Shown piece after piece: positions 5,786 through 53,171 of a DNA stretch of 64,000 nucleotides. The notes below the pieces were generated by a model. It did not search any database. It saw nothing but the letters and a program-made list of their open reading frames with translations, and was not told the DNA's origin. The translations under genes and the position numbers were made by a program. Each line of letters begins with the position of its first letter. Within the stretch, counting starts at the first letter, position 1. The stretch is taken from assembly GCA_019423565.1 (NCBI GenBank), contig JAHZBE010000002.1:18563-82562 (forward strand), read 5' to 3'. The DNA is from a bacterium. GTDB lineage: Bacteria; Bacillota_I; Bacilli_A; RF39; UBA660.

Positions 5786-6304
5786 TTACTCATTAAATTT
5801 TTCTTCTTTTGTCATATCTTTTTTCCTCTCAACATTTTTATTATTTTTCTTTATCTCATTTACTTTTAACGATACAAATACAGATAATACTGTATTTTCT
5901 TTATTTGTTATACGATTATTTTCATCTAAATAAAATTTTTCTGGTAATTTTAATTCTTTAGCTGATTTAGATATATCAATTGATGTACAATTTTCATCTA
6001 ACTTTATATCCACATCAGGTTTTAATCTTTTTAAATCTTGTTCAAACTTACGTATTTCCTTCTCTGATAATATCATTTCATAAGCATTTGTTACTTCAGC
6101 AAGGTAGTTTTCCATACTTCTTTCTTCATAATTTTCTATCTCATCATTTAACCATTTAATTAAATTGTTTGTCGCATCATCATATTCAGAAACGTTTCTT
6201 AATAATTCCATTTGTAAATCAGTTAAATTAACATCTTTATTACCTTTAAAATATTTATTAGTTATTTCAAGTATTTTTTCCATATTTAATTTCTGATTTT
6301 CCAT
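5786..6304 (-). CDS. hypothetical protein
   Basis: 172 aa ORF; no recognised domain. Confidence 0.35.
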   Translation of the reverse strand: MENQKLNMEKILEITNKYFKGNKDVNLTDLQMELLRNVSEYDDATNNLIKWLNDEIENYEERSMENYLAEVTNAYEMILSEKEIRKFEQDLKRLKPDVDIKLDENCTSIDISKSAKELKLPEKFYLDENNRITNKENTVLSVFVSLKVNEIKKNNKNVERKKDMTKEEKFNE

Positions 6305-6457
6305 TTGAAATACCCCCTTTTCAAAAGACGGCCATTATATTAACATACAAGTACTTTTTTGCCAATTTTTTTGAAAAGATTGCAAATTCATAAAAATAAT
6401 AGTATAATTGTAGTCGTTAATCTTATTAACTTTGATTCTATAAAGAAAGGAGAAAAA

Positions 6458-35122: not shown

Positions 35123-35200
35123 ATACAAAATTTGGTGACCTGTATGGGATTCGAACCCATGAATGCTGCCGTGAGAGGGCAGTGTGTTAAGCCACTTCAC
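35123..35200 (-). tRNA. tRNA-Glu (anticodon CUC)
   Basis: Manual fold: 7-bp acceptor stem, T-arm ATGGG/TTCGAATC/CCCAT, anticodon stem CTGCC/GGCAG with loop CTCTCAC; encoded CCA; resembles E. coli tRNA-Glu except C34. Confidence 0.7.
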
Positions 35201-35275
35201 CAACAGGCCATGGCTGCCCAAGTTAGATTCGAACTAACGCATAATAGATTCAGAGTCTACCGCCTTACCACTTGG
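35201..35275 (-). tRNA. tRNA-Gln (anticodon CUG)
   Basis: Manual fold: acceptor TGCCCAA/TTGGGCA, D-arm GCCAAGTGGTAAGGC as in bacterial tRNA-Gln, anticodon loop CTCTGAA, encoded CCA; immediately abuts tRNA-Glu. Confidence 0.7.
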
Positions 35276-35340
35276 CTATTGGGCAATCCAATAATATTAT
35301 AACAAAAAAGTCTAGGTTTTTCTAGACCTTTTTATATATA

Positions 35341-35598
35341 TTAATTAATTCCGAGTCCTAATTTGATAAATAATATAAGTATTCCTATCAAACCTGTTAT
35401 TAAAGCTCCTACTGATGTCCTCCATAACCATTTATTTCTATCTTCAATTTTGTTAATAGTTTCTAAGTTTCTATTTGCTAAGTTGTATGCTTCATTTGAC
35501 TTTTCTTTTATAAGTTTGTAATCATCTATTTTACTTTCAATAACAGCGAGCCTAGTTAAAACTTCTAATTCAAATTTTTCTCCCATATGCATCACCAT
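35341..35598 (-). CDS. XhlA-like small membrane protein (phage hemolysin/holin-associated family), tentative
   Basis: About 80 aa, coiled-coil N-terminus and single C-terminal TM (ALITGLIGILILFI), the architecture of XhlA-family proteins. Confidence 0.35.
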   Translation of the reverse strand: MVMHMGEKFELEVLTRLAVIESKIDDYKLIKEKSNEAYNLANRNLETINKIEDRNKWLWRTSVGALITGLIGILILFIKLGLGIN

Positions 35599-35749
35599 CC
35601 TTAATATATATTTCTATTATATTAAATGCATATTTTAGTATTTTGAGTTTGTTATTAACTATAATTTTATAATTTTTAACAGTTAAAATATTATTGTATA
35701 ATTAATTATTTAGTTCAACGCATACTTGTGTATCGCATTTTTACTTATT

Positions 35750-37090
35750 TTATTTAAAATCAAACTCTTTATAAGCCTTATTTAGTAAATTTTGTCTCAT
35801 ATCTTTTAATAAACAATCTACAACTTCAAAAGATATCTCTCTTTGATTTTTATTTGTTGTATCAAATAAGTTAAAGTTTATGTTTTCTTCTTCAGATAAC
35901 TTTTTCATATTTAATAATGATTCATTATATTCATTTAAATTTGTCTCATTAAGAAATGATCTTTTTTCAAGTGATAAATTTGCATTGTAATCACGTTTTA
36001 ATGATGTTAGACTATCCGCATATGTTGAAATAACAATATCAATTTTATTTTTAATTAAAGGTATATATAACTTTTTATATTCACTATATTCATTTTCACT
36101 CATTCCATTTTTTAAATATAATCTATCAACCCAAATTAGTCTATCAAATAAAGATCTATCAATTATAATAATGTCTGGTTTTCTCTCAATTGATTCTTCT
36201 AATTGTTTTAATACATATTTTGAAATTTCTGTATTAACTACATTTTTATATTTGTTTTTTAAAGTTGGATATATTTCCTTTTTGTATTTTTCAGATGTAG
36301 TAAATTCTTCTAATACCTCTACTACAAAACCTTTCTTTTTGAAAAAATCTTTTAAATTATTAATTAAACTTGTTTTACCTGTTCTTGGTGTTCCAGTAAA
36401 TTCAATAACATATGGAGAATTATCAGATAAAACTTTTTTTAGTTTGTATACTTCTTCTTTTCTATAATGTATTTTTCTTAATTTATTATATTCTTCTATA
36501 TTATCCTTAAATATAATATTTTTTACATATTCATCGTTATCTTTATTATTAAAGATTTCATCTATTAACGCTTTTAATCTTATGAACATAGGATTATTTT
36601 CATCTTCATTAAATATTAAACTATTATAAACTTCAGTATAGTACCATTTTTGAGATTCATATCCTCTTTTAAATGCTGAAAAATCATATTTTCCCTTAAT
36701 TTCAAATAATATTTTTAAATCTTCAAGATTACTAATTTTATCCGCACATATTACTGCTTTATGTCTTAAATCTAATTTTTTAGTTTCTTCTATTGTATGT
36801 TTTTTTCTTTCTTCCCAAGATAAACTTTTATCTGGTTCACTCGCACCATATACTAATGAAGCAATATCATCATTAAAATTATCTTTTATATCTTCTATTT
36901 CATATGATGTATCTTCTACAACATCATGTAAATACCCTGCGGATACAACGTTTTCATCAAATACATATTGTTTTAATATTTGTCCAACATTTATTGGATG
37001 TATTATCATTGGTTTTTCTTTATCACTTTTTCTTACCTGACCTTTATGCGCTTTTATCGCAAATTCTTTTGCTTTTAATTCTATATTCAT
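35750..37090 (-). CDS. fusion protein: N-terminal RelA/SpoT-type HD hydrolase domain (small alarmone hydrolase-like) plus C-terminal P-loop deoxynucleoside/nucleotide-kinase-like domain
   Basis: Residues 1-150: HKGQVRKSDKEKPMIIHPINVGQIL...GYLHDVVEDT...ICADKISNL match the (p)ppGpp hydrolase HD signature. Residues about 225-400: Walker A GTPRTGKTS and IIIDRSLFDRLIWVDRLY (dNK-like DRS/ERS region). Confidence 0.6.
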   Translation of the reverse strand: MNIELKAKEFAIKAHKGQVRKSDKEKPMIIHPINVGQILKQYVFDENVVSAGYLHDVVEDTSYEIEDIKDNFNDDIASLVYGASEPDKSLSWEERKKHTIEETKKLDLRHKAVICADKISNLEDLKILFEIKGKYDFSAFKRGYESQKWYYTEVYNSLIFNEDENNPMFIRLKALIDEIFNNKDNDEYVKNIIFKDNIEEYNKLRKIHYRKEEVYKLKKVLSDNSPYVIEFTGTPRTGKTSLINNLKDFFKKKGFVVEVLEEFTTSEKYKKEIYPTLKNKYKNVVNTEISKYVLKQLEESIERKPDIIIIDRSLFDRLIWVDRLYLKNGMSENEYSEYKKLYIPLIKNKIDIVISTYADSLTSLKRDYNANLSLEKRSFLNETNLNEYNESLLNMKKLSEEENINFNLFDTTNKNQREISFEVVDCLLKDMRQNLLNKAYKEFDFK

Positions 37091-37230
37091 AACTCCTCCA
37101 TTTATAATAAACTAGAAAATTTATCATATTTAATATTGTAATCAACTATAAGAATTATAACATATTTATGTACTATTTTGAATAGTTTACATCACATCTA
37201 AACCTGGTGATGGGCACTGTGTAGTTTTTA

Positions 37231-37845
37231 CTATAAATATTTATTTATATCATTTATATATAATTTTAAAATATCATATTGCTTTATATTTTTATTCTTA
37301 TATCCTAATTCTTTTCTAATTGCTAAAATTAAAGTTTCAATCTTTGGTGCTTCATTTGATAAATAATATTTTGTGGATTCTACTTTAGTTAGACCTTTTT
37401 TATTTGTCTCGCTATTCATAACAGATATTTTAAAGTCGGACCAAGCTTTCAATACGTTGTCAGATGCATAAATTGTCATATATTTTTGTTGTTCTCTCAA
37501 TTCTTCTGTTATATTTTTATTATTTGTAATTTCGGCATAAAGAACATTTTTTATTAACCAATCTAAAAATTCAATATATATCTTTTGTCTTTCTTCTCTA
37601 ATTTGATTTTTAATATTATATCTGTTTTCAAAATATTTGCCTACCGGTACTGAAACAAACGCTAATAATCCAGTAATCAATGCTACCGAAATCGTTGGAT
37701 ATTTATCAAATACATATTTAATAGCTTTTATTAATAATTGTCCTATTTTTATAGAAATATAAACAGCAAATATTAGTAATGCCATTTCCAAAATGAAGTA
37801 TAATATATCGCGTTTAAAATTAAAAATTTTTTTATTACTATTCAT
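37231..37845 (-). CDS. hypothetical membrane protein (2 N-terminal TM plus cytoplasmic domain)
   Basis: 204 aa; 15 nt downstream of the Bro-N gene (likely co-transcribed). Confidence 0.4.
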   Translation of the reverse strand: MNSNKKIFNFKRDILYFILEMALLIFAVYISIKIGQLLIKAIKYVFDKYPTISVALITGLLAFVSVPVGKYFENRYNIKNQIREERQKIYIEFLDWLIKNVLYAEITNNKNITEELREQQKYMTIYASDNVLKAWSDFKISVMNSETNKKGLTKVESTKYYLSNEAPKIETLILAIRKELGYKNKNIKQYDILKLYINDINKYL

Positions 37846-37859
37846 AATTTTCTCCTACT

Positions 37860-38714
37860 TTATTTTGATGTTTCTAGTTGTTCTTCTTTCTTATATTCAT
37901 AATTTAATCTATTTTGTTTATTAACAACAGATTCTCCTAAATTTCTTTCTATATCTTCTCTTGCTACTTTTGCTGCATGTCCTCCCATTCTAGCAACCTC
38001 TTTATTTTGTTCTAAGCCTTGCGGTTTATGTTTTTCTGCTAATCTTTTTGTAGTTTCTTCTGATAAATCAGCCAATATTATTTCAATGTTATCCATATTA
38101 TCTCTTAAAGACTCTTTACGAAGACCTTTATATTGTTTATATTCTTTAGCTGTCATACCAGACCATTCTTTATAGATTTCATTAGTTAGTATAGCATATT
38201 CTTTACCTTCAGTTATACCATTCTCTTGCCAAATATCAGTTAATTCTTTTCTATCTTGAATTCCTTTTAATCTTTTTGTAATCCATTTTTCATCATAGCC
38301 TTTAGCACGATATATATCTATAGCTCTTTGAGCTGAAAGTGATGGGTCAAATACTTCGTCAATTCTTTCACTTCCTAATTTAGCTAACCACCCTTTTATT
38401 GATTCAGCATTTTTACTAGGAATAGATTCAATTATTCTAAACATGCCCTCAATATCAACTACATCAGTATTATAATATTTACCATCTGAAGACTTTAATT
38501 TCAGTTGGTTACAATTTGTAACCGACTCATTTCCTTCTTTTTTTAATCTATGTTTTAACACTTTCCAATAATTTCTAGGATTATCACTTTCTGATAAAAC
38601 TCCTACTATATCAACAACACTAATATAATATTTTTCATCTTCTTTATCCCATACGGTTCTTATTGTTTCATTATTAAAAATTTTATTAATTAAATGCATT
38701 TTATCCTGATTCAT
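37860..38714 (-). CDS. Bro-N domain protein, DinD (DNA-damage-inducible protein D)-like
   Basis: N-terminal ...IRTVWDKEDEKYYISVVDIVGVLSESDNPRNYWKVLKHRL fits the Bro-N consensus; 284 aa matches DinD-type proteins. Confidence 0.5.
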   Translation of the reverse strand: MNQDKMHLINKIFNNETIRTVWDKEDEKYYISVVDIVGVLSESDNPRNYWKVLKHRLKKEGNESVTNCNQLKLKSSDGKYYNTDVVDIEGMFRIIESIPSKNAESIKGWLAKLGSERIDEVFDPSLSAQRAIDIYRAKGYDEKWITKRLKGIQDRKELTDIWQENGITEGKEYAILTNEIYKEWSGMTAKEYKQYKGLRKESLRDNMDNIEIILADLSEETTKRLAEKHKPQGLEQNKEVARMGGHAAKVAREDIERNLGESVVNKQNRLNYEYKKEEQLETSK

Positions 38715-38766
38715 TTATAAACCTCCTATTTCATTTTCAGATAATTCTTTTTCTTTTAATTTTTCA

Positions 38767-39393
38767 TTACTCATACATCATACCTACATAATCCATAACC
38801 ACTTCTTTTATACCTAATTTTTCTGCATACAAAGATAATCTGACAAGATCTTTATCCTTCCTTTTTATATACTCTCGTACACTATGTTTAATAAGTTCTA
38901 AATCCATTCTATTTTTAGATCTAATAATATCACATATACATCTTTCGACATCATATGCTTTCACTTTATTACCCATAGGTGTTTCAATTTCAATAAGACC
39001 AAGTTTGTAAATATCATTATCAACATAAAACACATTATGTTTCCTTAAGTGCACACTACTATAACTTCTTTTTACAGTTATATCATACACTCCATTTGGA
39101 GCCTTTGTAGATAAACCATGAAAATACAAAGCCGTCATATGAGAAAATATTACATTAGGCATACTTAAACCAAAAACATAATAATTATCTATAACTTTAT
39201 TAAAATCAATATAAATACCTGACGCAACTTTTTCTATAATACCTTTTTCTTGCATGATTGAAAGATACATTCTGTGTATGCCAAACATATCAAGTTCTTT
39301 TGAAGTAATATATCCATTATTTTTTTTCATAAGTTCTTCAATAATTTCGATATTACTTTTATCCTGAAACCCTTCTATAGTTAATTTTTCCAT
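38767..39393 (-). CDS. AbiEi-like (type IV TA antitoxin family) transcriptional regulator domain protein, tentative
   Basis: Start at ATG 39393 with AAGAGG RBS (track ORF extended to 39513); ITSKELDMFGI winged-helix-like N-terminus and VFGLSMPNVIFSHMTALYFHGLS core reminiscent of AbiEi/COG5340 proteins. Confidence 0.4.
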   Translation of the reverse strand: MEKLTIEGFQDKSNIEIIEELMKKNNGYITSKELDMFGIHRMYLSIMQEKGIIEKVASGIYIDFNKVIDNYYVFGLSMPNVIFSHMTALYFHGLSTKAPNGVYDITVKRSYSSVHLRKHNVFYVDNDIYKLGLIEIETPMGNKVKAYDVERCICDIIRSKNRMDLELIKHSVREYIKRKDKDLVRLSLYAEKLGIKEVVMDYVGMMYE

Positions 39394-39733
39394 ATAGTAC
39401 CTCTTTGACTTTTCTACTGAAATTATATCATGTTCAGTAGTTTTGTCAACCTTTTTCCTGAATTCAGGGAAATGGTCACTTACTTTGTTATTACTAGTTT
39501 CACAAGCAATCATCGCACGTTTTATAACTTTATGAAATTTTCACATTTATTATATTCTAGTAAAGACATTAATTTTCTTGATTCCAAAAACTCATTTCCA
39601 TATTCATCAATATGTTTTATACCTTCAAAAATTTTTCAATATATTCTTCTATATACCAAAATTAAAAAAGCAATATTAATCCATCAAATTAATACTGCTC
39701 ATCATTTAAACTTTAACATAAATTATTCAATAT

Positions 39734-40141
39734 TTATTTTTTAAACCACATATACATTCCTTCTTCAGCAACTTCTTTTTTTACTTTAAAGCCAAATTTT
39801 TCATAAAATCCAACTTTACCATTTGCTGCCAAAAGTTGTATCATCATTTCTTCGCCATCTTCAAGTGTATCTTTTACTCTATCTAATAGATTATTAATCA
39901 TTTTTTTACCAATATGTTTGCCTTGATATTCTGGTTTTACAATAACATCTGATACAAGTACCATATAACCATTATCTGTTACTAATCTTGCCATACCTAC
40001 AATATTACCATCTTGAATATATTTAACTGTCATACTATTTTTTAAACTTTTTTCTAACAATCTCTTTGACGGACATTTCCAACCTACGGAATTAATCATT
40101 TCTAAATATTCTTCATATGTTAAATTATTTTCTTCTATCAT
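39734..40141 (-). CDS. GNAT family N-acetyltransferase
   Basis: 135 aa; VKPEYQGKHIGKKMINNLL motif A, GNAT fold length. Confidence 0.75.
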   Translation of the reverse strand: MIEENNLTYEEYLEMINSVGWKCPSKRLLEKSLKNSMTVKYIQDGNIVGMARLVTDNGYMVLVSDVIVKPEYQGKHIGKKMINNLLDRVKDTLEDGEEMMIQLLAANGKVGFYEKFGFKVKKEVAEEGMYMWFKK

Positions 40142-40335
40142 ATAAACACCTCATTACACACTATTTAACTTATCTATTCTACTAGTCAATAAAGTACAAT
40201 CATCTTCAACTTATAATTATTATAACATATTCTTTTTTATTTTATGATTTTAAAAATTTAAAAAGATCAACCATTAAAGTTGATCTTAACAATATAGTTA
40301 CATTATTTTAAAAAGTATACAATAAATTTTTTCTC

Positions 40336-42159
40336 CTAACCAACGGTATGAATATTGCTTTTAAAAGTTGATTCATATTCCCAATTAATTAAATCAAAAG
40401 ATTTAAGTTTAACTTTTGTTGTGGCAGAATCACCTTGACTTAACGTTATAATATATTGATTACCTTTCTTTTCAATTAGATCAATATTACTAATATAATA
40501 AATGTTATTTGGTATTTGATTTTTGTATTCAACTTTTTCCCATTTTGTTCCTTTATCTTTTGTTATATACATGTATGGAAACTCATTCTGTTCATTATTA
40601 TATAATAAAACAATTCCATTATTTTCATCATACATTATAAAATCTTCTAATGTCTTCCTTGAACCATTTTCTGGCAACTCAATAGATTCCCAATCATTAC
40701 CACTATTTGTCGTTAAATATGCCTTTTTAAATTCCCCACTGCCCATTGTCCAATCAGAACCTAATGCAACATATCCAAAGTTTTGATTAGTAAATCCAAC
40801 TACCCTATGAGGTATATCTTTGTATATATCTTTATTTACAATATCAAAACTTTTTTCTTTCCAATTCAAACCATTATCTGTAGATATTTTTAATTTTGGA
40901 TCTTCTCCATAAAAATATGCAATAGGAACAAGTTCATTAGTTGAAATAAACCAACTACCATTTGGAAAAGAAATGTCTCTGTAAAAATTTAAAGTATCTT
41001 TTACTTCACTTGGTGAAATATCCGTTTTAATCCAATTATTACCATAATTTCTAGTAAATAATAATTCATTATTCGTATTTATAAAATAATCTGTTTCCAT
41101 ATTATATCCACTTTTTTTTATATCACCATCTACATTATCAAATACGTACTTGTAAACTTCATCAGCAATTATACTGCTGCCATCGCTAAGTGTAATAATT
41201 GAATAAATGCCTGGATTTACTTTTCCACCCTTACCCGATTTATAATCAATAAAAGATAGTGCCTTTACCTCTTTATTATCCCTCATATCAATAACACTTG
41301 TTTCATCAAAAAACTGATTATTTGGATAAATTGATACTTCATAATTTTTTAAGTTACTCATTTTTATTTGTTTTCTTAAAGGTATTTTTTTAATCTGATT
41401 ACTTATATATCTAATATTTAAACTCTTTGAATATTCATCGACTAAATGTTTATTAATTTCACAATCATTCTTATCTTTACAATTATCCACACTTTTATAG
41501 CCAAATTCTAAATTTTTATTTTCGTACCTATAATATCCATAACCAACATAATCATAGTTATCATCAAAGAAATTTATTGTAATTCCGAATTTCTTGATAT
41601 TTCCTTTTTTAGTTAATTGAATACTATAATCATTAATATTTGAATTATATTTTTTTATATCATTTGTTTTAGATATAATTTTTAACAACTCATCTAATCC
41701 TTTTTTTTCTAAATTGGATACTCCAAAAAATCCTATTTCATAATGATTATTACCCTCTTTTATATTTGATGGATGATAATATATGTACCTTATTAAAAAA
41801 GTCAAAAATATAATTACTATAATAGAAACTATCATAATAGATAATTTTCTTATTTTATTTATTAATTCTTTTTTTCTTTGAATTTGATTTTGCTCTATTT
41901 TTTCGATTGTTTTGTCTATTTCTTTCTGGATATCAATTTTTTTATTTTTTCCTCTTTCGCCACATAATATTTCAGATACATCAGCATCTAATATTAAAGC
42001 TAACTTTTGTAAAATTGTTATATCTGGAAAACTAAGTCCCCTTTCCCATTTGCTCACTGCTTTATCAGTTACAAATAACTTATCTCCCAATTGTTGTTGA
42101 GTTAAACCTTTTTCTTTTCTAAGGGATGCTATAAATTTTCCAACCTTGTTATTATCCAT
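40336..42159 (-). CDS. XRE-family HTH regulator fused to a TM helix and extracytoplasmic BNR/Asp-box beta-propeller domain
   Basis: N-terminal LRKEKGLTQQQLGDKLFVTDKAVSKWERG (HTH_3); TM at about 100-125; C-terminal repeated S/T-x-D/N-x-G-x-x-W boxes (RNYGNNWIKT, TDNGLNWKEK, TNSGNDWESI, TKDKGTKWEKV). Confidence 0.6.
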   Translation of the reverse strand: MDNNKVGKFIASLRKEKGLTQQQLGDKLFVTDKAVSKWERGLSFPDITILQKLALILDADVSEILCGERGKNKKIDIQKEIDKTIEKIEQNQIQRKKELINKIRKLSIMIVSIIVIIFLTFLIRYIYYHPSNIKEGNNHYEIGFFGVSNLEKKGLDELLKIISKTNDIKKYNSNINDYSIQLTKKGNIKKFGITINFFDDNYDYVGYGYYRYENKNLEFGYKSVDNCKDKNDCEINKHLVDEYSKSLNIRYISNQIKKIPLRKQIKMSNLKNYEVSIYPNNQFFDETSVIDMRDNKEVKALSFIDYKSGKGGKVNPGIYSIITLSDGSSIIADEVYKYVFDNVDGDIKKSGYNMETDYFINTNNELLFTRNYGNNWIKTDISPSEVKDTLNFYRDISFPNGSWFISTNELVPIAYFYGEDPKLKISTDNGLNWKEKSFDIVNKDIYKDIPHRVVGFTNQNFGYVALGSDWTMGSGEFKKAYLTTNSGNDWESIELPENGSRKTLEDFIMYDENNGIVLLYNNEQNEFPYMYITKDKGTKWEKVEYKNQIPNNIYYISNIDLIEKKGNQYIITLSQGDSATTKVKLKSFDLINWEYESTFKSNIHTVG

Positions 42160-42355
42160 TACTTCTCACCTCAAAAACATTATACTATAAAAAAAACAAA
42201 TTTAATATCGACCAATAGTTTAGATAATAAATTTGTGATTTTTTAAACTTATCATGCAAATAATTTATGACTTTAAATTATAAATTTTGACAAAAAATTT
42301 ATTAAAAACTATTCGTAGCAGCAATAATATATTGTCATAAATTTTTATTAATATT

Positions 42356-44977
42356 TTAAATACTAATTTTATTTTTAATAATATTAATATCATCATTATT
42401 TCTAGTGACAAAATTTCCTACAATTTTATTCATACATTCAGGTGTCCAATATATTTTTAATTTTTCTTTTGCTCTTGTAATCGCAGTATAAAAGATGTTA
42501 TGACTTATAACATCACCTACTTCATCATTTATAACAATTTTAACTGATTTATATTCTAAACCCTGTGATTTATGAATTGAGGTTGCATAGGCAATAATAA
42601 ATGGTACTACACTATCCTTTTTATCCTCAACATCATCATCATAATTAGCATTAACACTAAAACAAATAATCGTTGATTTATCACTTCTTTCAATTATTTC
42701 TAATCCAACATATTGTGCATCGACATCAGAAATGAAAATATCCACACTTATTTCAAATGTTATTTTTTCTTCTGTTTTAGTTATTCCTGTTATCACACCC
42801 TTTAAATTATTGTATAAAACAGGATAGAATCTATTTAAATCATTAAACAAAATAGGATCATCTACTTTATAAGAATTTATTCCCCACTCATATCCGATAT
42901 TATTGTTATCTGATTGCAAATATCTATTAATGCTATTAATTCCATATGGTCCATCATAATTTAAACATAATATAATTTCATCTTTATCGTCCTTTTCAAA
43001 TATCTTTTCGTTTAAATTATATGACATATCATTATCTGCTAAATATTCAATTATATCATTATCAATATTTCTAACTTTTTGCCATAAATCTAATAAAACA
43101 GGATTTTTAGTTCTAAATGTTCCATCTAATTCTTTTATACAATTACCTGGTAACAAATCCTTGGCAAGCCTAAACCAATTACCAAATTTAATAGATTCTA
43201 TTTGATAAACATCACCCACTAACAATAATAAATTATAATTTTCGTTAGTACTTAACAATATATTCATATCATAATTATCTACAGTACTACACTCATCTAT
43301 AATTAATAGATCACATAGTTGTGGATTTCTTTTATACTTATCAATTGTCAAAAATTCAAAATTTTTATTATCAAGTCCTATCCTTCTTTTTAAATTTTCA
43401 ACTGCAGGATTCGTCTTTGCTAAAAATACAATTTTTCTGTATTCAAAAATACTAGAAATTATTTTAATAGTTTCCGTTTTTCCACATCCAGCAGAACCAT
43501 AAATTAAAGCAACTTTTGTATCCACAAACAATTCTTTACATATATCATATTTTTTTGAATCTGAAAATTCGTAATCTGTTAACATTTCCCAATCAGCGAA
43601 CATATTACTATAATCATCATATCCAAATTTTGTAAATTCATTTAATTTTTGCAAAATTGATATAGTTTCCTGTTCATAACCATTTATATATATATACTTA
43701 TCACTCTTAATAATTTTTCGACCTTCATGTCTAGGTAAATATAATTTTGAATTAAAAACATCTATTAGGTTATCCATATATTCTGACTCCAAATCAATAT
43801 CACTTATTTTTGTATATATTTTCCAAAAACTATCAGAGTTATAACTAAGTCTCCTAGAAAATAACTCATGTTCTCTACCATTACTCTCAATGCATTGTAA
43901 TAAATCACTTATATCAACTTTATGATTTGATAAAGACGATGCGTATGGCATTTCATCAAAAGGAATAGAACTCCAATTCAAATATAAATTAGACAACTTA
44001 TAATTTTCACTAGACATCAGTTGTGATTTTATGACAATATTGTTAAGAGTAAATAACATATACTTCAAAATATTAGCACTGGGCTTATTTTTTAAAATTA
44101 TATTTCTTGAAAGATTAAGCAAATTTAAAATGTAATTAGTTTTTGCACCTTTTATCATTTTCTCGCTAAATATGTTATATTGATTATCATTAAATTCAAC
44201 TATATCTAATAGGTTAAAATTATTACTCATTAAATATTTCATTAACAAATCATACTCTCCATATCTTGAAGAAATTTTATATTCTAATCCAAATATTTTA
44301 GCATAATTATTAAACTCACATGGTCTAATAGCAATCTTATAATTATCTATAATTTTAATATTTATTTTTTTACCAAACAAATTTATAGTTCTATCAACGC
44401 TAGAAATTTTAATAGCATAATTATCCATAATTTTAATTCTACTGTAAACAATTATTCTATTAAATTTATTTATATAATCTGTCGCATCAGATAGGGTAAC
44501 TTCATAAAATACATTTTTATTAATAATTATCGGTTTTACTTTTTTTACATAATATTGATTAGCTATTACACCTTTGTTTATATTAAAAGGAACTTTTTTC
44601 ACATGATTACAAATTTGAAAATAATAATTTTCCATGTTTTTCTCGATATTTAAAGGAAATGAATATAAGTTTTCCAAAATATCCATATTATACTTAATTT
44701 TCATAAATTTTTTTAGTTCAATTAAATAATTAAGATATTTTATTAATACTCTTGAAGAACCATCACCATTTGGTAGAGTATGCGATGTTGATATCTGCAA
44801 AAATCCATGCAAAGCTCTTAATTCTCTCATATTAGCACAACTTTTCATATATTTAACTGATAGTTTATTATTTTCGTGATTAAATTTTACATATCCTTTT
44901 ATTTTATCAGTAATATATACTCTAAAAAAACAATACTCAACTAAATATCTAAGATTACTTAATACATTTTTAGACAA
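42356..44977 (-). CDS. SF1 RecD/Pif1-like DNA helicase with about 480-aa N-terminal domain of unknown function
   Basis: C-terminal half: Walker A GSAGCGKTET, LLIIDECS (motif II), LLLVGDVYQ, YATSIHKSQGLEYKSV (motif VI-like); the N-terminal half has no recognisable motif. Confidence 0.65.
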   Translation of the reverse strand: MSKNVLSNLRYLVEYCFFRVYITDKIKGYVKFNHENNKLSVKYMKSCANMRELRALHGFLQISTSHTLPNGDGSSRVLIKYLNYLIELKKFMKIKYNMDILENLYSFPLNIEKNMENYYFQICNHVKKVPFNINKGVIANQYYVKKVKPIIINKNVFYEVTLSDATDYINKFNRIIVYSRIKIMDNYAIKISSVDRTINLFGKKINIKIIDNYKIAIRPCEFNNYAKIFGLEYKISSRYGEYDLLMKYLMSNNFNLLDIVEFNDNQYNIFSEKMIKGAKTNYILNLLNLSRNIILKNKPSANILKYMLFTLNNIVIKSQLMSSENYKLSNLYLNWSSIPFDEMPYASSLSNHKVDISDLLQCIESNGREHELFSRRLSYNSDSFWKIYTKISDIDLESEYMDNLIDVFNSKLYLPRHEGRKIIKSDKYIYINGYEQETISILQKLNEFTKFGYDDYSNMFADWEMLTDYEFSDSKKYDICKELFVDTKVALIYGSAGCGKTETIKIISSIFEYRKIVFLAKTNPAVENLKRRIGLDNKNFEFLTIDKYKRNPQLCDLLIIDECSTVDNYDMNILLSTNENYNLLLLVGDVYQIESIKFGNWFRLAKDLLPGNCIKELDGTFRTKNPVLLDLWQKVRNIDNDIIEYLADNDMSYNLNEKIFEKDDKDEIILCLNYDGPYGINSINRYLQSDNNNIGYEWGINSYKVDDPILFNDLNRFYPVLYNNLKGVITGITKTEEKITFEISVDIFISDVDAQYVGLEIIERSDKSTIICFSVNANYDDDVEDKKDSVVPFIIAYATSIHKSQGLEYKSVKIVINDEVGDVISHNIFYTAITRAKEKLKIYWTPECMNKIVGNFVTRNNDDINIIKNKISI

Positions 44978-45339
44978 ATAATCTCTATCATCTAAATTTT
45001 CTTCTATTATTCTATTTATAACATTATTTATATCATATATTTTAGAATCTATATAATTTAAAGCTTCATAACTTCCTTTTACAACTAGTACTAAATTTGT
45101 ATACTATTTTACCATAAATTTTTATTTTCTTACTAATCCAATAAGAAAATTTTCGATATTTCAAAAAAATATAATTTTTAAATCACCAATTATGGAATAA
45201 AAATTTCTTTAAAATTATACAATTATTAACAAATTCTAATTATATAATATAACTATTTTTTTGATAAAATTTAAATATTTCATTGCATAAAAAGAGTATT
45301 GATATAATTTCAATACTCTAATATAGTTAACATTTTTTA

Positions 45340-45918
45340 TTAGTTTTTAAAACCTAATCCATTAAAGAATTTAAGGTTCCCATCTTTACCAAAAGATGCA
45401 GTTACATTGCTGCTTCCATCTTCTGCTACCCAAACATATTTATTCCAAGAACTAACTTCAATAAGAGTTCCATCAACACCACCAACGGCTTTTTTAAATT
45501 CATCATAGCTAATTCCATCATTAATTCTTGCTTTTATGTCTGATAAGTTATCAAGTGTTACTTTTTTATTTTTTAATTCTTTTTTATCATATTCACTTTT
45601 TATAGATACTATTTTATCATTTGAAAATGAAACAGTAATTTTTTTATCATTACCAAAGTCATATTCATACTTATCAAGTGAAGTACTTTCAAGTTTAGTA
45701 GCTTCAAATCCTACTATACCATTTAATTCTTCTAATGTATTATCTAAAGACATCTTTGTTAAACATTCATAATATGAACATTTTGATTTTACAGTTTGTT
45801 CTGTACCACTTTTTACATTATCATTTTTTACATTTGTGTTTTCTTTTGTATTTGCACACCCTACAGTACAAATTAATACAAATAAACATGTTAACCCTAT
45901 TAAAATTTTATTTTTCAT
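45340..45918 (-). CDS. hypothetical lipoprotein
   Basis: Signal peptide with lipobox-like LICTVGC; 192 aa. Confidence 0.5.
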   Translation of the reverse strand: MKNKILIGLTCLFVLICTVGCANTKENTNVKNDNVKSGTEQTVKSKCSYYECLTKMSLDNTLEELNGIVGFEATKLESTSLDKYEYDFGNDKKITVSFSNDKIVSIKSEYDKKELKNKKVTLDNLSDIKARINDGISYDEFKKAVGGVDGTLIEVSSWNKYVWVAEDGSSNVTASFGKDGNLKFFNGLGFKN

Positions 45919-46092
45919 TTTTTCTCCTCCTAATTCAATTATAACCTATAATACATTAATTGTATACATATTTTAATATAAAAATTACACAGATATTTTA
46001 TATTAAATTATTTATCAAAAAAACTAGAGAATAATCTCTAGAATCACATATAAAACAGATGTAATATTTAACATGCACCAAATTTATTCTTT

Positions 46093-47835
46093 TTAATAAG
46101 AAAGATTACAAACTTTTTCTTTATTACTCATACACAAATTGTAATAATAACCTTGTTTTTTTATAAGTTCTTTATGTGTTCCAATTTCTACAATTTTTTT
46201 ATCTTCTATAAATACAATCAAATCAGCATTTTTAATAGTATTTAATCTATGTGCTATTACAAATGATATCTTATTCTCTAATATTTCCTTTGTAGCATTC
46301 ATTATATATTGTTCAAATTCCAAATCTAAATTTGATGTAACTTCATCAAGAATTACTATATCACCTTTTTTTAATATAGCTCTTGCAAAACTTAACAATT
46401 GTTTTTCACCATAAGATAATAAATCTGTTTCTGCAGTTATTATTGTATCGTATTTATTTTCAAATTGTTCTATTTTTTTATGGATACCAATTCTTTTACA
46501 AAGAGAAACAATATCTTGAAAAGTAACATTATCATTTCCATACATTAGATTTTCTTTTATAGACATGTTTAATATAACGGGTTCTTGAAAAACATATGAT
46601 ATATTTTTCCTAAGTTCACTAAGTTTATAATTTGTATAATCAATACCATTTATTAAGATTTTTCCATTCGTTAACTTATAGAATCTTGGTATTAAATTTA
46701 CAAAAGATGTTTTACCTGCACCGCTTTTTCCAACAATTGCAATTGTTTTAGGTTTATCTACTTTTAAATTAATATTATCCAATATTAAATTTTCTCCATC
46801 ATAACTTAATGACACATCTTTAAATTCTATTGAATCTATTTTGTTTAATTCTAATACTCCTTCATCAACTTCTTTTTCAATATTAACTATGTCTAATACA
46901 TTTAAAAATGCAATATACTTATTCAAAGCCCCATGCATATGATCCAAAACTCCATGCATATTACCATTAATATCATTTATATAATCCATCATTAAAATTA
47001 TTGTAGACCCACCACAAATTCCTATTAAAATTTTATTTCCACCAATCAACAATGTGATTATTGTAGAAAAAAACGATAATAAACTAAATAATGCAGTATG
47101 TAATCCTGAAATTTTACTTGTTTTAATAAAATCACTTTTTGATTTTTCTAATAATTTTTTTATATCATCTATATTTGTTTCCTCAAGTCTTAAAGTTTTT
47201 GTAGTTGAAAAACTATCAATATATTCATTAACCTTTTCTTGAAGATTAATTATAGTTTTTTGTAATTTTCTATATGTTTTCATGCTTTTATTATAAAAAG
47301 GTATTAACATTAAATATGATATTACAAATATAACTAAAACACTAAGAGCAATTTGCCAATCTAAAAAGAACATTATAATAAGTGTAACTATTATACTCTT
47401 TATTCTATATGCAAACAATCCTAAGAAATTCCATATGAATAATCGTGCAGATTCAAAACTTTGTGTAACAGTTAAACTAAATAATTTCCCTACCTGCATC
47501 TTATCAAGTACACTTATATCGCCATTCTGAATAGTACTAAAAATTTTGCTTTTTATTTGTTTATCATTATCAAAACATATAATACTTCTTTGCTTTTCTA
47601 AATATAAACTACCAAGAAAAATTCTAATCCATATGTATAAGATATATATAGAAGAAATTATAATTACCATTTTTACATTTTTATTTGGAATAAAATTGTC
47701 AATTGAGCTTGATAACACAAACTGATACACAAAAACAGGAGCAATTTGAAGCACTTCAAATATTGCTCTTTTAATAGTAGGTTTTTTATTTGTAGTGAAA
47801 TTAAGCATTTCTTTTAATTTTTGTTTATTAAACAT
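46093..47835 (-). CDS. ABC transporter ATP-binding/permease protein (exporter half-transporter)
   Basis: 6-TM domain plus NBD with Walker A GKSGAGKTS, signature LSYGEKQ, Walker B ILDE. Confidence 0.85.
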   Translation of the reverse strand: MFNKQKLKEMLNFTTNKKPTIKRAIFEVLQIAPVFVYQFVLSSSIDNFIPNKNVKMVIIISSIYILYIWIRIFLGSLYLEKQRSIICFDNDKQIKSKIFSTIQNGDISVLDKMQVGKLFSLTVTQSFESARLFIWNFLGLFAYRIKSIIVTLIIMFFLDWQIALSVLVIFVISYLMLIPFYNKSMKTYRKLQKTIINLQEKVNEYIDSFSTTKTLRLEETNIDDIKKLLEKSKSDFIKTSKISGLHTALFSLLSFFSTIITLLIGGNKILIGICGGSTIILMMDYINDINGNMHGVLDHMHGALNKYIAFLNVLDIVNIEKEVDEGVLELNKIDSIEFKDVSLSYDGENLILDNINLKVDKPKTIAIVGKSGAGKTSFVNLIPRFYKLTNGKILINGIDYTNYKLSELRKNISYVFQEPVILNMSIKENLMYGNDNVTFQDIVSLCKRIGIHKKIEQFENKYDTIITAETDLLSYGEKQLLSFARAILKKGDIVILDEVTSNLDLEFEQYIMNATKEILENKISFVIAHRLNTIKNADLIVFIEDKKIVEIGTHKELIKKQGYYYNLCMSNKEKVCNLSY

Positions 47836-47836
47836 A

Positions 47837-49606
47837 TTATTCTCCTATTTTATCTAAATTAATTTCGTATATTTTTCTATAATTTTCATTTTTTAGTAAT
47901 TCATCATGTGTTCCACATATCACTTTACCATTATTTATATAGATAATTTTTTCAAATTTTGGTGCCAATTCTATTTCATGTGAAATAAATATTTTACTAG
48001 AATCATCTTCTAATGTTAATAAATTTTCTAATATTTTTCGTTTATTTATTCTGTCTATTGCACTAAAAGAATCATCAAATATCATTATAGGTTTTGGTTT
48101 TGTATATGCTCTTACTAAAATTAATCGCTGTCTTTGTCCTTTTGATAAGGAAACCCCATTTTTACCTATTTGACTATCATATCCATCATTAAGTTTTTGA
48201 ACGTCTTTGTGGAATGAAAAAAAGTTTGATAATTCAATTATTTCTGGCATAGAAATACTTGGCATTAATATCTTTATATTCTCTGCAATTGTTCTTGAAA
48301 ATAAATAAGAATCTTGAAGTAAAAGGCACATATTTTCTCTAATAATTTTTTTATTTAAATCTTTTATCTCATAATTTCCAATTTTTATACTTCCATCATA
48401 TTCATAAAAACCAATTAAAGTTTTTAATAATATTGTTTTACCACTACCCGTACTACCAACAACCATAACCTTTTCACCTGGATTAATTACAAAATTTAGA
48501 TTACTCAATAAAATCTTTCCATTTATTTTTATATTAGCATTTTTAAATGTTATTGTAGTATCTCTAATTTCAATATTTTCATCACTTTTCTCATCTTCTA
48601 ATGTCAAATTTAATAGATTATTAAGTCTCTTGCAAGAAACAATACATAGATTAAAAACTTCTAATATTTCTGATAAATCAGTAAAAGATCTCGTTATTTT
48701 ATTTGCATAATTTATTGTTACATATATGCTTCCTATAGTTATAAAATTATTAACATACAAGATACTACTAATTATGAATATTACTGGAGTTTGAGTTTTT
48801 ACAACACTACTTGTTGATGCTTTATAAAAACTATCCAATACAATTTTTCTTTTATTCGCATCTAGATTATTATTATTTACTTTTTCAAATTTCTCTATTT
48901 CTTTTTCCTGTAAATTATTAATTTTCATAAATTTGATATTAGAATAATTATCATTTAATTTTGAATATAATTCTTTTTGTACCTTCATTTTATTTTCAAT
49001 TATTGGTTTTGATTTTATGTAATACCAAATAGACAATAAAATTATTATTAATATTGATACAAACATTACTAGCGATAGTCTTATATCTAAACTTGCTAAT
49101 TGGGCTATTGCAAATATAATTATTAAAGTTAAATCAAGTATATATGTAAGTTGTTTTTCTATAACATTGACTATATTGGCAACATCATCTGTTGAATTTT
49201 GAACTAATTCAGCAAGTGACTTTTTATAAAAATCTTGATATGTTAAATTTTGTATGTGATTAAATAATTTTAATTTTAATTCAAATTGAAATTCTTGAAT
49301 TATTTTATTTTTTGTAACATTTCTTACATATGTAAATAATATAATTACCCCTTTTATAAGTAAAACAAAAATACACATTATTGGTATAAATGATAATTTA
49401 CCATTAAATAAACTAATAAACAATTCTATAATATCATTATTTGTATTTTGTTTTAATAACACATCAATAAAATATTGTATAACAACAGGTATATATGTTA
49501 CTAAATAATTCAATGCAATACTCAACAAAAAAAACACTAATATTAATAACTTAGTATGTTTAAAACTTGATACAATAGCTTTCAATAACTTCATAAACTT
49601 CTCCAC
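47837..49606 (-). CDS. ABC transporter ATP-binding/permease protein (exporter half-transporter, partner)
   Basis: TMD plus NBD (GSTGSGKT, LSKGQRQR, IFDDSFSAID); 1-nt gap to partner gene. Confidence 0.85.
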   Translation of the reverse strand: MEKFMKLLKAIVSSFKHTKLLILVFFLLSIALNYLVTYIPVVIQYFIDVLLKQNTNNDIIELFISLFNGKLSFIPIMCIFVLLIKGVIILFTYVRNVTKNKIIQEFQFELKLKLFNHIQNLTYQDFYKKSLAELVQNSTDDVANIVNVIEKQLTYILDLTLIIIFAIAQLASLDIRLSLVMFVSILIIILLSIWYYIKSKPIIENKMKVQKELYSKLNDNYSNIKFMKINNLQEKEIEKFEKVNNNNLDANKRKIVLDSFYKASTSSVVKTQTPVIFIISSILYVNNFITIGSIYVTINYANKITRSFTDLSEILEVFNLCIVSCKRLNNLLNLTLEDEKSDENIEIRDTTITFKNANIKINGKILLSNLNFVINPGEKVMVVGSTGSGKTILLKTLIGFYEYDGSIKIGNYEIKDLNKKIIRENMCLLLQDSYLFSRTIAENIKILMPSISMPEIIELSNFFSFHKDVQKLNDGYDSQIGKNGVSLSKGQRQRLILVRAYTKPKPIMIFDDSFSAIDRINKRKILENLLTLEDDSSKIFISHEIELAPKFEKIIYINNGKVICGTHDELLKNENYRKIYEINLDKIGE

Positions 49607-49688
49607 ATTTTTATTTTTTTAAACAAAAGACCTGATACTTTCGTAGCAAGTCTATCTTAACGAACATATTGGTTCGACTAAATCTAAA

Positions 49689-49762
49689 TGGCAGGGGATG
49701 AGAGAATCGAACTCCCAACAAAAGTTTTGGAGACTCCTATTATACCATTTAACTAATCCCCT
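49689..49762 (-). tRNA. tRNA-Trp (anticodon CCA)
   Basis: Manual fold: acceptor AGGGGAT/ATCCCCT, anticodon arm GGAGT-CTCCAAA-ACTTT, T-arm GGGAGTTCGATTCTCTC, encoded CCA; close to B. subtilis tRNA-Trp. Confidence 0.75.
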
Positions 49763-50294: not shown

Positions 50295-51515
50295 TTACAC
50301 ATTGGTATTCTTTTTTATTTGAAGTTCATCGCCAACTCTAAGTACATCTGATTTTAAGTTATTTAACTGTTTAATATCATTTATTGTTGTATTATAATCT
50401 CTAGCAAGTTTCCATAAACTATCCCCTCTTTTAACAGTATAAACTATAATACCATTACCTGTTTCAGTTCCAGTTGGAATAATAAGAACACTTCCTACAG
50501 TCAATATATCACTTGTTAAATTATTTTTGTTTTTAATATCATCTATACTAACATTAAATATTTTAGATATTGACCATAGTGTATCTCCATTTTTGACTAC
50601 ATAAGTATTTTCTTCATTAATTATATCATCTTCTGAAGGTGTTACTATAGTTGTAGAAGATGGTATATTTATAATTTGACCAATACTTAATAAATCACTA
50701 GTTAAATTATTAACTTTCATTAAATCATTAACATTAACTCCATATTGTCTTGCGATTGAATATAAACTATCTCCTCTTTTAACTACATATGATATATTTG
50801 TATCTTCTGCTTTATAATATTCCGGTACTCTTAAAGTTTGACCTACATATAAGATATTACTTTTTAAATTGTTTAATCTTTTTATTTCATTTACATTAGT
50901 ATTAAATTTTTTAGCAATATTCCATAAAGTATCTCCTTTTTGCACAGTATAAGTAATAGATGAACTACTTTCACCATATGGAATATTTTTATATTCAGCA
51001 ACTGCTTTTACAACTGCTTCAGCATATTTTTCCCAATTATTTTTTATTCTTTCTGCATCACCCTTATTATCAAGAAATCCATATTCAATAATTATTGGTT
51101 CTGTTACACCTGTATTCCTGTGGATAAAATAATAATCCTTACTATTATCACTTGGTAATCTTCTTTGATATGCTTTTCTTATAGATTGACCTTCTTTACT
51201 TAGATTTTCAAGTATTAATTTTGATAGTGTATCATTATTTCTAAGAGCGTATATAACTTCTGCTCCTGATGAGCCACCTGCATTTAAATGATTTGATATA
51301 ACAAGTACATCAGGTGAATTGCCATATGCGTTTAATATTCTGTTAACTCTTTCTGTTGGAGTTACTGTTTCATCAGTACTCCTAACAAGCGTAGAATTTG
51401 CACCTAATTCATTAAATCTTCTATTTAAATAATCAGCAAATTTTAAAGTATATTCCTTTTCAACAAGTCCATTTCCACTAGTTCCAGGATCACTTCCACC
51501 ATGGCGAGTACCCCT
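50295..51515 (-). pseudogene. Amidase_3 plus 3xLysM gene (paralog of 29816..31006) lacking its first ~7 codons and any start codon
   Basis: Frame is open from the TAA at 51516-51518 down to 50295 and encodes RGTRHGGSDPGTSGNGLVEKEYTL... (Amidase_3 starting at the conserved GG) then 3 LysM repeats. There is no Met, GTG or TTG in the 190-aa amidase part (first Met at 50945). The recombinase gene stop is 12 nt away. Confidence 0.6.
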
Positions 51516-51527
51516 TTAAACAAGGAA

Positions 51528-53171
51528 CTAATCTAATCGAATTAAATTAAATTCTATTTCAATATCTCTTGTGTTAGTTTCAGGATTTATTTCACCAATC
51601 AATACTTGTTCTATAAATTCATCAACAATCTCTTTTGTTAATTTATCAATATGTTTATATTTTTCGAAAACTTTTTTACTTGTTTGAACTTTTTCTTCAT
51701 TTGTTTTAATATTTAAAAGCTCATCATTTATTACTTTGATTCTTTTCTTATATTCTTCTATTTCTTTACTAAATTTCTCTCTTAACATCATAAATTCATC
51801 TTGTGAAATAATTCCTTCTAATTTATCTTCATATATTGACTTATAATAATCATTTTTTTTATTTATTTTTGTATTCAATTCTTCTTTTTCTTGTTCGAAG
51901 ATTTCTTTTTTTGAAATAGAACTAGAGTTTAAAGATTTTTTTTGAATTGTATATAATCTATCTAACTCATCAATATTATAATATATATCTAACTGTTTGT
52001 TAATCTCATCAACTATAATTTTTTCTAGCACATCACATCTTATTGAAGCATTATTATTACACTTATGATTAGCAAGCCTTACACCCTTACATTTTAAATA
52101 TGGTGTTTTACCCTCTGATGTTTTATATAAATTTCTAGTGAATACTTGATGACATTCTTTACAATATACTTTTCTGCTTAACATATAAACTTTGCCCGTT
52201 CTAGTTACTCTAGTCCTCGTCTTAAATTTACATTGAACAGCATTCCAAGTATCAACATCAATAATTGGTTCATGAGTGCCATAACTATATGTCCATTCAT
52301 CTTTAGGTTTATTTATTTGCTTATGATTTTTATAACTAACATATGTCTTTTTACCTTGAACTAAGTTTCCCATATAAACTTCATTTCTTAATATTCCATA
52401 AATAGTATCTTGACACCATTGTGTTCTCATTCCATATTTAGCACTTCTACAAACATATTTACTTCCATTTTCTTTTTTATAATTACTTGGTGTTAATATT
52501 CCTCTATCATTTAAATTCTTTGCAATTTTATAATATCCCATACCACTTTTATACATTGAAAAAATTTCTTTTACAATCTCAGCAGCAACTGGATCAATTA
52601 ATAGTTTATTTTTATTATTAGGATCTTTTTTATACCCATATGGAGCAAACGAACCTAAAAACAAGCCATCTTCTCGTTTATTTTGTAATGATCTTCTAAC
52701 ATTATCAGATAAATCTTCTAAATACCATTCATTAACTAAGCCATTAATTTGTCTTGACTTTTTATTACCTGCAACATCTGTATCTGCATTATCAACAATG
52801 CTTACAAATCTAACTCCCCATTCAATAAATTTATTATGAATATATCTTTCGATAACTTCCATATCTCTTGAAAATCTTGATTGAGTTTTACATAATACAA
52901 TATCCACTTCTCCTTTTTCACATTCTTCAATCATTTTGTTAAAACCTGGTCTGTTATTATCAGTACCAGAATAATCATCATCACTATATATGGCAACTAC
53001 TTCCCAGCCTTGTTCAAGTGCATATTTTAGTAACATACTCTTTTGATTTGCAATTGATTCACTATCATCATTTTTATTTTTCTTATATCTATCTTCGTCA
53101 GATAATCTAACATATATTATTACTCTCTTCGGTCCAATTCTTTTAACTCTTGTTATTGACATGAGAAGCAC
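51528..53171 (-). CDS. large serine recombinase (resolvase/invertase catalytic domain plus recombinase and zinc-ribbon/coiled-coil C-terminal domains)
   Basis: 547 aa; N-terminal VIIYVRLSDED (catalytic Ser in R-x-S context), resolvase-like fold, Cys-rich zinc-ribbon segment (CKECHQ...CKGVRLANHKC) and long C-terminal coiled coil. Confidence 0.85.
   Translation of the reverse strand: MLLMSITRVKRIGPKRVIIYVRLSDEDRYKKNKNDDSESIANQKSMLLKYALEQGWEVVAIYSDDDYSGTDNNRPGFNKMIEECEKGEVDIVLCKTQSRFSRDMEVIERYIHNKFIEWGVRFVSIVDNADTDVAGNKKSRQINGLVNEWYLEDLSDNVRRSLQNKREDGLFLGSFAPYGYKKDPNNKNKLLIDPVAAEIVKEIFSMYKSGMGYYKIAKNLNDRGILTPSNYKKENGSKYVCRSAKYGMRTQWCQDTIYGILRNEVYMGNLVQGKKTYVSYKNHKQINKPKDEWTYSYGTHEPIIDVDTWNAVQCKFKTRTRVTRTGKVYMLSRKVYCKECHQVFTRNLYKTSEGKTPYLKCKGVRLANHKCNNNASIRCDVLEKIIVDEINKQLDIYYNIDELDRLYTIQKKSLNSSSISKKEIFEQEKEELNTKINKKNDYYKSIYEDKLEGIISQDEFMMLREKFSKEIEEYKKRIKVINDELLNIKTNEEKVQTSKKVFEKYKHIDKLTKEIVDEFIEQVLIGEINPETNTRDIEIEFNLIRLD

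Follow-up and report, generated by a model that had tools for sequence, protein, structure and literature searches.

Several bacterial defence systems are built around superfamily 1 (SF1) helicases. The staphylococcal protein Nhi, of ~610 residues, is a solitary defence protein that joins an N-terminal HsdR-like nuclease to a DUF2075-type helicase; its presumed targets are replication intermediates of phages. Lactococcal AbiO likewise combines, within one gene, an N-terminal accessory domain, in this case a PD-(D/E)XK nuclease, with a C-terminal SF1B helicase. Helicase-DUF2290 (Rousset 2022) and Gabija, whose helicase is GajB, also use SF1 helicases with AAA_19 and UvrD_C or UvrD_C_2 domains, but each is made up of two genes, the helicase depending on DUF2290 or on the GajA nuclease, respectively. 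A further set of candidates is provided by the PDC families, which were defined from genes lying within BREX, DISARM or type I restriction-modification (R-M) systems and which comprise 145 untested candidates (Payne et al. 2024, bioRxiv 10.1101/2024.01.29.577857). Here we describe a helicase gene on the minus strand of a 64,000-nucleotide stretch of contig JAHZBE010000002.1 (hereafter the window), from a bacterium of the Bacillota lineage RF39, and compare it with these systems. Sequence comparison indicates that the gene is a damaged member of a known, catalogued candidate family, PDC-S53, and in that respect a largely ordinary feature of this genome.

The open reading frame (ORF) at 42356-44977 matches the PADLOC hidden Markov model (HMM) for PDC-S53 (PDLC05035) with E = 0 and 1015.5 bits, query residues 1-871 aligning with positions 29-894 of the 900-position profile. 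The first ~28 profile positions are unmatched because the start codon of this copy has been deleted, as described below. The next PADLOC matches, to type IV-D RecD, PDC-S68 and GajB, are much weaker and are confined to the helicase motifs. In addition to the end-to-end match, the gene shares with PDC-S53 an architecture of ~900 residues, a solitary organisation with no obligatory partner, and adjacency to type I R-M or other defence loci. It differs from the family in that the window copy has no start codon and is not an intact, expressible coding sequence. PADLOC gives the family neither an assigned mechanism nor an annotation of the N-terminal part. An earlier note on this DNA had proposed the gene as a single-gene defence candidate; the full-length match bears this out, with the amendments that the candidate had already been catalogued and that this particular copy is damaged at its start.

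The ORF listing gives 873 codons for 42356-44977, with TTG as the earliest possible start, and the gene had previously been described as encoding 873 residues. The ORF is real, but the native protein is ~905 residues long: homologues range from 895 to 935 residues, and the closest of them, P0001 (905 residues), is 99% identical. P0001 begins with MDEALNYIDAKIYD..., and the window retains an in-frame EALNYIDSKIYDINNVINRIIEENLDDRDY 5′ of the TTG. What remains of the coding sequence of the PDC-S53-family helicase, from native codon 3 through codon 905 and the stop, occupies 42356..45067 on the minus strand, as judged by the ORF listing, the PADLOC match, identity to P0001 and the in-frame translation EALNYIDSK..., and the 873-residue ORF is the portion of this remnant that lies 3′ of the first in-frame TTG. 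The TTG (44975..44977, minus strand), assumed as the start of the shorter ORF, is the codon for native Leu33, and all that precedes it in the way of a ribosome-binding signal is a weak, Shine-Dalgarno-like AGAG; no ATG, GTG or TTG occurs earlier in frame in the window copy. The stretch at 44978-45067, which had been counted as part of a long AT-rich non-coding flank, encodes native residues 3-32, still in frame. The flanks have a guanine-plus-cytosine (GC) content of 15-17%, near that of other spacers here (18-20%; whole window 24.6%), which marks them as ordinary intergenic regions.

The native start was removed by an 11-bp deletion (GATGTGAATGG), the junction of which lies at 45069..45070 on the minus strand and which disrupts the native ATG-GAT reading frame. 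In DNA alignments with four 99%-identical loci (L001, L004, L007 and L008) and one 92%-identical locus (L009), the 11 bp are kept in all five and are missing from the window alone. The deletion sits between codon 3 and the putative native ribosome-binding site AAAAGGAAG (45072..45080, minus strand), which is kept in L001 and L009. This site now precedes an out-of-frame mini-ORF, ATG AAG CTT TAA, which translates as MKL and a stop (45058..45069, minus strand). The 32 residues lost from the 873-residue product form most of the first helix and include I12, I19, I23 and R30, positions with little or no variation among 58 homologues, and the product is left without that helix. Since the native start has been deleted, the window copy is probably inactive: most likely it is silent, and at best it is a hypomorph that yields low levels of a product without the conserved first helix. 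Compared with the intact allele, the remainder of the gene carries nine synonymous and eight non-synonymous codon changes, with an estimated ratio of non-synonymous to synonymous substitution rates (dN/dS) of ~0.27, and G417W is the sole codon difference at a conserved position. This ratio implies that the body of the ORF evolved under constraint and that the lesion is recent. Over the ~8.1 kb of DNA shared with relatives, the window differs by 122 substitutions and only two indels, which indicates that the assembly is not indel-noisy, and the deletion looks genuine as well as recent. The exact 873-residue product is known from a single contig; the other listed members of its 90% cluster have 905-907 residues and occur on at least 60 contigs, with the exception of one 93-residue fragment. 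The corrected gene model, native length 905 residues with the start lost, makes the window strain unsuited as a source for functional tests, for which the intact allele in L001-L008 or L009 is the better choice.

RecD/Pif1-type motifs had been noticed in the C-terminal half of the protein, and this assignment holds. Walker A GSAGCGKT (43475-43498), Walker B IIDECS (43286-43303), motif III VGDVYQ (43202-43219), motif V SIHKSQGLEY (42551-42580) and motif VI YTAITRAK (42467-42490), all located by translation of the minus strand, are intact in the window, and their positions are invariant over the 58 homologues. Pfam domains fall in this half only (AAA_30, AAA_19, Viral_helicase1 and UvrD_C_2, on ORF residues ~481-841). 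A full-length AlphaFold model, with a predicted local distance difference test score (pLDDT) of 86.7, has as its top Foldseek match RecD2 (3gpl; E = 1.3e-19, target-normalised TM-score 0.65), followed by RecD, Pif1 and Dda, and the 1A/2A RecA-like fold with an SH3-like 2B insertion is matched. Since the best PDB matches are RecD2, the RecD subunit of RecBCD, Pif1 and Dda, we assign native residues 449-905 (42359..43729, minus strand) to an SF1B helicase core, on the evidence of Pfam, NCBIfam and Foldseek. Membership of this family would give the motor a 5′-to-3′ polarity on single-stranded DNA (ssDNA). The likeness to Deinococcus radiodurans RecD2 (3gpl/3e1s; TIGR01448) and to RecD of RecBCD extends over these C-terminal ~450 residues, including the SF1B motifs and the SH3-like 2B insertion. 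In contrast, the N-terminal module of ~450 residues has no detectable homology to the N-terminal domains of RecD2 or RecD; the NCBIfam RecD2 equivalog TIGR01448 reaches 129.6 bits where its cutoff is 500 and covers query residues 417-855 only; and the PDC-S53 helicase is sporadic and island-borne, unlike a core-genome RecD2.

The N-terminal 498 residues, modelled separately, gave a pLDDT of 87.8 and a predicted TM-score (pTM) of 0.84. In native numbering taken from the full-length model, the module is predicted to begin with a six-helix bundle (~1-160, of which residues 3-160 remain in the window at 44594..45067; pLDDT 87-88, with conservation in agreement). This is followed by a five-stranded beta-barrel resembling an oligonucleotide/oligosaccharide-binding (OB) fold (173-247; 44333..44557), recognised from model secondary structure, local Foldseek matches and conservation. 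An alpha/beta region (251-448; 43730..44323) that is present in the models, has no match in Pfam, PDB or BFVD and contains the invariant residues R323, N345, Q351 and E403 completes the module; all three features lie on the minus strand. Conserved aromatic and basic residues are positioned on the strands of the barrel, where Y175, K178, K180, Y190, E191, K203, R206 and Y219 are invariant, and in the model this aromatic and basic pattern would fit an ssDNA-binding surface. Local Foldseek matches were obtained to bacterial single-stranded DNA-binding proteins (SSBs), Rim1, RPA70N, baculovirus LEF-3 and phage SSBs (probability 0.75-1.0, over ~85-100 columns); we infer that they belong to the barrel, the Foldseek output giving no query ranges. 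Together with the RecD2-like core and the lack of a detectable nuclease, the helical bundle, OB-like barrel and alpha/beta region provide a first structural outline of PDC-S53.

The statement that the N-terminal 480 residues carry no assignable motif is borne out, Pfam being silent on residues 1-480. Across 24 diverse members, Pfam at E ≤ 1 detected neither a nuclease family nor a RecD2 N-terminal domain on the module, a PDB sequence-profile search with the module gave one spurious match (E = 0.012), and a PHROGs search with the module alone gave none. NCBIfam and the PADLOC Nhi and AbiO models yielded no nuclease match for the helicase protein, and Foldseek with the confident N-terminal model returned nothing at E ≤ 1e-3 from PDB and BFVD. 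Since none of these searches detected a nuclease, the suggestion of an Nhi-like nuclease fusion is unsupported; homology of the N-terminus to a housekeeping accessory domain was not found either. The helicase thus departs from Nhi in its length of 905 residues, its RecD2-like core and the absence of a detected nuclease or of a PADLOC Nhi match, and from AbiO in that helical, OB-like and alpha/beta parts stand where AbiO has its nuclease, with no PADLOC AbiO match. More specific readings were also considered. A HEPN site (R-N-x-x-E-H in helix 2) is rejected: R42 is invariant but the histidine is present in only 20 of the 58 homologues, with tyrosine in 30; the window reads RYLVEY at the HEPN-like Rx4H position, which does not fit the Rx4-6H pattern. 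E191 and K203, which might suggest a PD-(D/E)XK site, lie on strands of the OB/SSB-like barrel, with no match to a nuclease family or fold, which leaves that reading unsupported. A MobF/TraA relaxase-helicase, which would begin with an HUH relaxase domain, is rejected: the NCBIfam TraA/TraI matches fall on the helicase region only, and neither Pfam nor the model reveals a relaxase domain.

The N-terminal module is peculiar to this family. Among 1.84 billion proteins, a profile of the module picked out 1,220 cluster representatives, and E ≤ 1e-30 was reached by 467. In every full-length match among the best 150 of the 1,220, the module lies at the extreme N-terminus of a protein of ~900 residues, and the uniform architecture of these full-length matches indicates that the fusion is fixed. 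Data holding one genome per species contain at least 598 relatives, all at 38-48% identity, from Bacillota, Bacteroidota, Patescibacteria, Proteobacteria, Elusimicrobia, Melainabacteria and Acidimicrobiia and from one Nanoarchaeota metagenome-assembled genome (MAG). The distribution of the family is, as far as these genomes indicate, patchy and horizontally spread. No conserved partner gene was found: among 78 diverse loci, the largest cluster of neighbours within four genes on either side occurs in only 12, which agrees with the idea of a stand-alone gene and sets PDC-S53 apart from Helicase-DUF2290 and Gabija. Recurrent neighbours include HsdR, HsdM, serine recombinases, Fic, YgjP and several DNA methylases, and a pooled PADLOC scan of 147 neighbours identified SoFic, type I restriction endonuclease and specificity subunits, a MADS methylase, PDC-S04 and LmuB. 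HsdR or HsdM is encoded no more than four genes away in 16 of the 78 loci, mostly upstream and co-directionally, and in two loci (L068 and L079) the helicase gene stands between hsd genes and YgjP; members of the family often occupy the 3′ end of type I R-M operons. Five plasmids and two phages of Bacillota hosts also carry full-length members. A 10.6-kb plasmid of L. plantarum has the gene as cargo adjoining a GHKL ATPase and a toxin-antitoxin pair; in the phages the gene forms part of a small accessory cassette, which is divergent from the replication genes and has methylases or a type IIS R-M system, together with recombinases, as neighbours. The defence setting proposed earlier is supported, by R-M neighbours, plasmids and phages in the family at large, by Cas9 in the close relatives and by AbiEi and a PDC-S13 Bro-N protein in the window. 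On this comparative evidence, the family is a single-gene cassette, with a putative promoter region of its own, that moves among genomes, temperate phages and plasmids. The context assembled here (~1,200 cluster representatives, solitary, adjacent to type I R-M systems and carried by plasmids and prophages) adds a family-wide view to the PDC-S53 entry.

The two phages, Terrisporobacter phage TPDSL_ph1 and Erysipelothrix phage phi1605, have in common a 278-residue gene directly upstream of the helicase (6068-6904 in both L089 and L090). It has no Pfam match and was not seen in the bacterial loci, and it may be a lineage-specific partner.

We lean, by a modest degree, towards the interpretation that the intact 905-residue protein is a stand-alone helicase directed against phages or other mobile elements, with an ssDNA-sensing N-terminus, and that the window holds a damaged allele of it. 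In the mechanism we propose, the OB-like N-terminal module would recognise ssDNA or phage replication or recombination intermediates, possibly coated with phage SSB; recognition would load or license the 5′-to-3′ motor, which would then unwind these intermediates or strip proteins from them, blocking phage DNA replication. This scheme, which we hold with moderate to low confidence, is modelled on Nhi, Hna and Hachiman, systems in which the response is to phage SSB or to replication intermediates. Several points weigh against the interpretation. The PDC candidates are explicitly untested (Payne et al. 2024, bioRxiv 10.1101/2024.01.29.577857), and of eight other candidate systems that were tested (seven PDCs and HEC-01), only four conferred protection against phage. 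No searchable paper text was found to name PDC-S53, and no published experiment on it was found. The 11-bp deletion is known from the assembly alone. The characterised solitary defence helicases Nhi, Hna, HmaA and AbiO all have a nuclease domain, so that with none detectable here the effector step would be without precedent, and the conserved polar residues of the module (R42, H98, R108, E191, K203, R323, N345, Q351 and E403) could build an unrecognised active site, which makes a cryptic catalytic activity within the N-terminal module possible. That these helicases represent something new, either a nuclease-free SF1B class of single-protein immunity or an N-terminal enzymatic fold new to PDB, seems to us rather unlikely; in the former case the N-terminal module would sense phage ssDNA or SSB-coated replication intermediates, and the motor alone would then halt infection, by dismantling replication or recombination intermediates or through abortive infection brought about by burning ATP. 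Experimental validation of the family would make it the first case of a solitary defence helicase in which no nuclease can be recognised. An enzyme of the Nhi/AbiO type, in which a novel or diverged N-terminal nuclease degrades phage DNA as the SF1 motor feeds it substrate, would conform to the pairing of helicase and nuclease in all the characterised solitary systems, and invariant polar residues including H98, R108, E191, K203 and E403 could be cited for it. We consider it distinctly unlikely given that Pfam, NCBIfam, PADLOC, PDB-profile and Foldseek (PDB and BFVD) searches all lack a nuclease, that the histidine of the Rx4H pattern is kept in 20 of 58 homologues and replaced in the window (RYLVEY), and that E191 and K203 lie on an OB-like barrel and not on an alpha/beta core like that of restriction endonucleases.

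A role outside defence, in which an accessory helicase would serve the replication, repair or maintenance of mobile elements or of the host as a RecD2 paralogue with an N-terminal OB domain (YrrC-like), would account for a core that is closest to RecD2. The order of the parts, an OB domain and then the SF1B core, is reminiscent of the domain order of RecD2 in Pfam. Carriage by plasmids (in one case beside a rep gene) and by two phages, a few kb from their replication genes, is in keeping with such a role, as is the frequency of serine recombinases among the neighbours. The score of 129.6 against the equivalog cutoff of 500, however, and the lack of Pfam RecD2 N-terminal domains separate the protein from RecD2. 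The sporadic occurrence across phyla at ~40% identity, extending to Patescibacteria and a Nanoarchaeota MAG, also speaks against a non-defence role, as do the phage copies that diverge from the replication module and stand beside R-M genes, the copies that lie beside or within type I R-M operons, and the dispensability of the gene, seen here in its start loss and its place in a variable island; we judge this role improbable. Other doubts concern the allele itself. Translation from the TTG at 44977 could make the 873-residue ORF functional in the window strain: the frame is open for 873 codons with every helicase motif present, a weak AGAG precedes the TTG, and gene callers have recorded the product. 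Yet the native ribosome-binding site now serves an out-of-frame ORF of three codons, the first helix with I12, I19, I23 and R30 is missing, the PADLOC profile and all homologues extend ~30 residues further, and the allele is a singleton, so we hold functionality of the shorter product to be quite improbable. Very improbable, in our judgement, is an artefact of assembly or sequencing behind which the strain encodes an intact 905-residue protein; the allele does come from a single contig and is seen in the assembly only, but the loss of 11 bp is atypical of homopolymer or short-read error, and two indels against 122 substitutions over ~8.1 kb do not point to a noisy assembly.

Upstream of the helicase gene lies a promoter-like extended -10 element, TGGTAAAAT (45106..45114, minus strand), conserved between the window, L001 and the 92%-identical L009. 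L009 diverges upstream of this putative promoter, which is conserved along with the gene cassette. A hairpin resembling an intrinsic terminator (45293..45319, minus strand) ends the upstream 192-residue gene and is the only such site in 42000-45450 (mean of 0.2 in shuffled controls); it would set the helicase gene apart as its own transcription unit. An Rfam scan of the window found three transfer RNA (tRNA) genes only, none of them in the flanks of the helicase gene.

A search for repeats around the gene found only short AT-rich pairs. Among these, a 26-nt direct repeat, 85% identical, brackets the gene (42324-42349 and 45101-45126). The upstream copy includes TGGTAAAAT. Some ~165 nt separate the downstream copy from the gene for a 607-residue helix-turn-helix (HTH) protein that follows it, and it is within this copy, at 42337, that homology with L009 ends. 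The repeat may serve both genes as a promoter or operator, may be a site of recombination, or may have arisen by chance in AT-rich DNA.

Comparison with relatives indicates that the helicase gene is in a variable island flanked by tRNA genes, and it was not found in conserved core-genome synteny. Rfam places two tRNA genes (35136-35285) at one end of the variable stretch and one (49692-49762) at the other. The window and its ~98%-identical relatives have only 39713-46001 in common, a block that holds the 192-residue gene, the helicase gene, the gene for the 607-residue HTH_3 protein and a GNAT gene. On the far side of the GNAT gene, these relatives have a complete type II-A Cas9-Cas1-Cas2-Csn2 locus (L001 15699-21576), with Cas9 two genes from the helicase, and of this type II-A CRISPR-Cas system the window has no trace. 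In its place, the window encodes AbiEi (38767-39513; no AbiEii gene was seen), the Bro-N protein corresponding to the PADLOC candidate PDC-S13 (37860-38714), an HD_4 and AAA_28 protein (35750-37090) and, in the same 35136-39713 stretch, a 204-residue protein. The 92%-identical L009 shares only 42337-45174 with the window, that is, the gene and its promoter region (with ~200 bp either side), and its helicase gene adjoins an NgoPII R-M system. The 607-residue HTH protein and the product of the 192-residue gene were considered as partners of the helicase and set aside: they accompany it only in the ~98%-identical relatives and are absent from L009 and from the 78 diverse loci.

The 607-residue protein (40336-42159), encoded downstream of the helicase gene, has an N-terminal XRE-type HTH_3 domain, a large C-terminal region with a weak signal resembling BNR repeats and, judged by eye, an apparently hydrophobic segment. 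In the spacer upstream of the 192-residue gene, the second of the two indels, at window position ~45977, is the absence of 12 bp (TAAATTGGATTA) relative to L001.

On the other side of the shared region, a 3.7-kb segment (46001-49689) with two ABC exporter genes (46093-47835 and 47837-49606) lies beside the tRNA gene and is absent from L001-L008, which suggests an insertion at a tRNA-adjacent hotspot. Further along, a large serine recombinase gene (51528-53171) abuts an Amidase_3/LysM gene, the frame of which is open from ~51515 to 50295. The latter has no 5′ end or start, its homology to an intact 414-residue gene of L001 beginning 36 nt in, and the same arrangement of recombinase and LysM gene occurs in L009; the region 50295-53171 looks like the result of an integrated element having truncated a cell-wall hydrolase gene.

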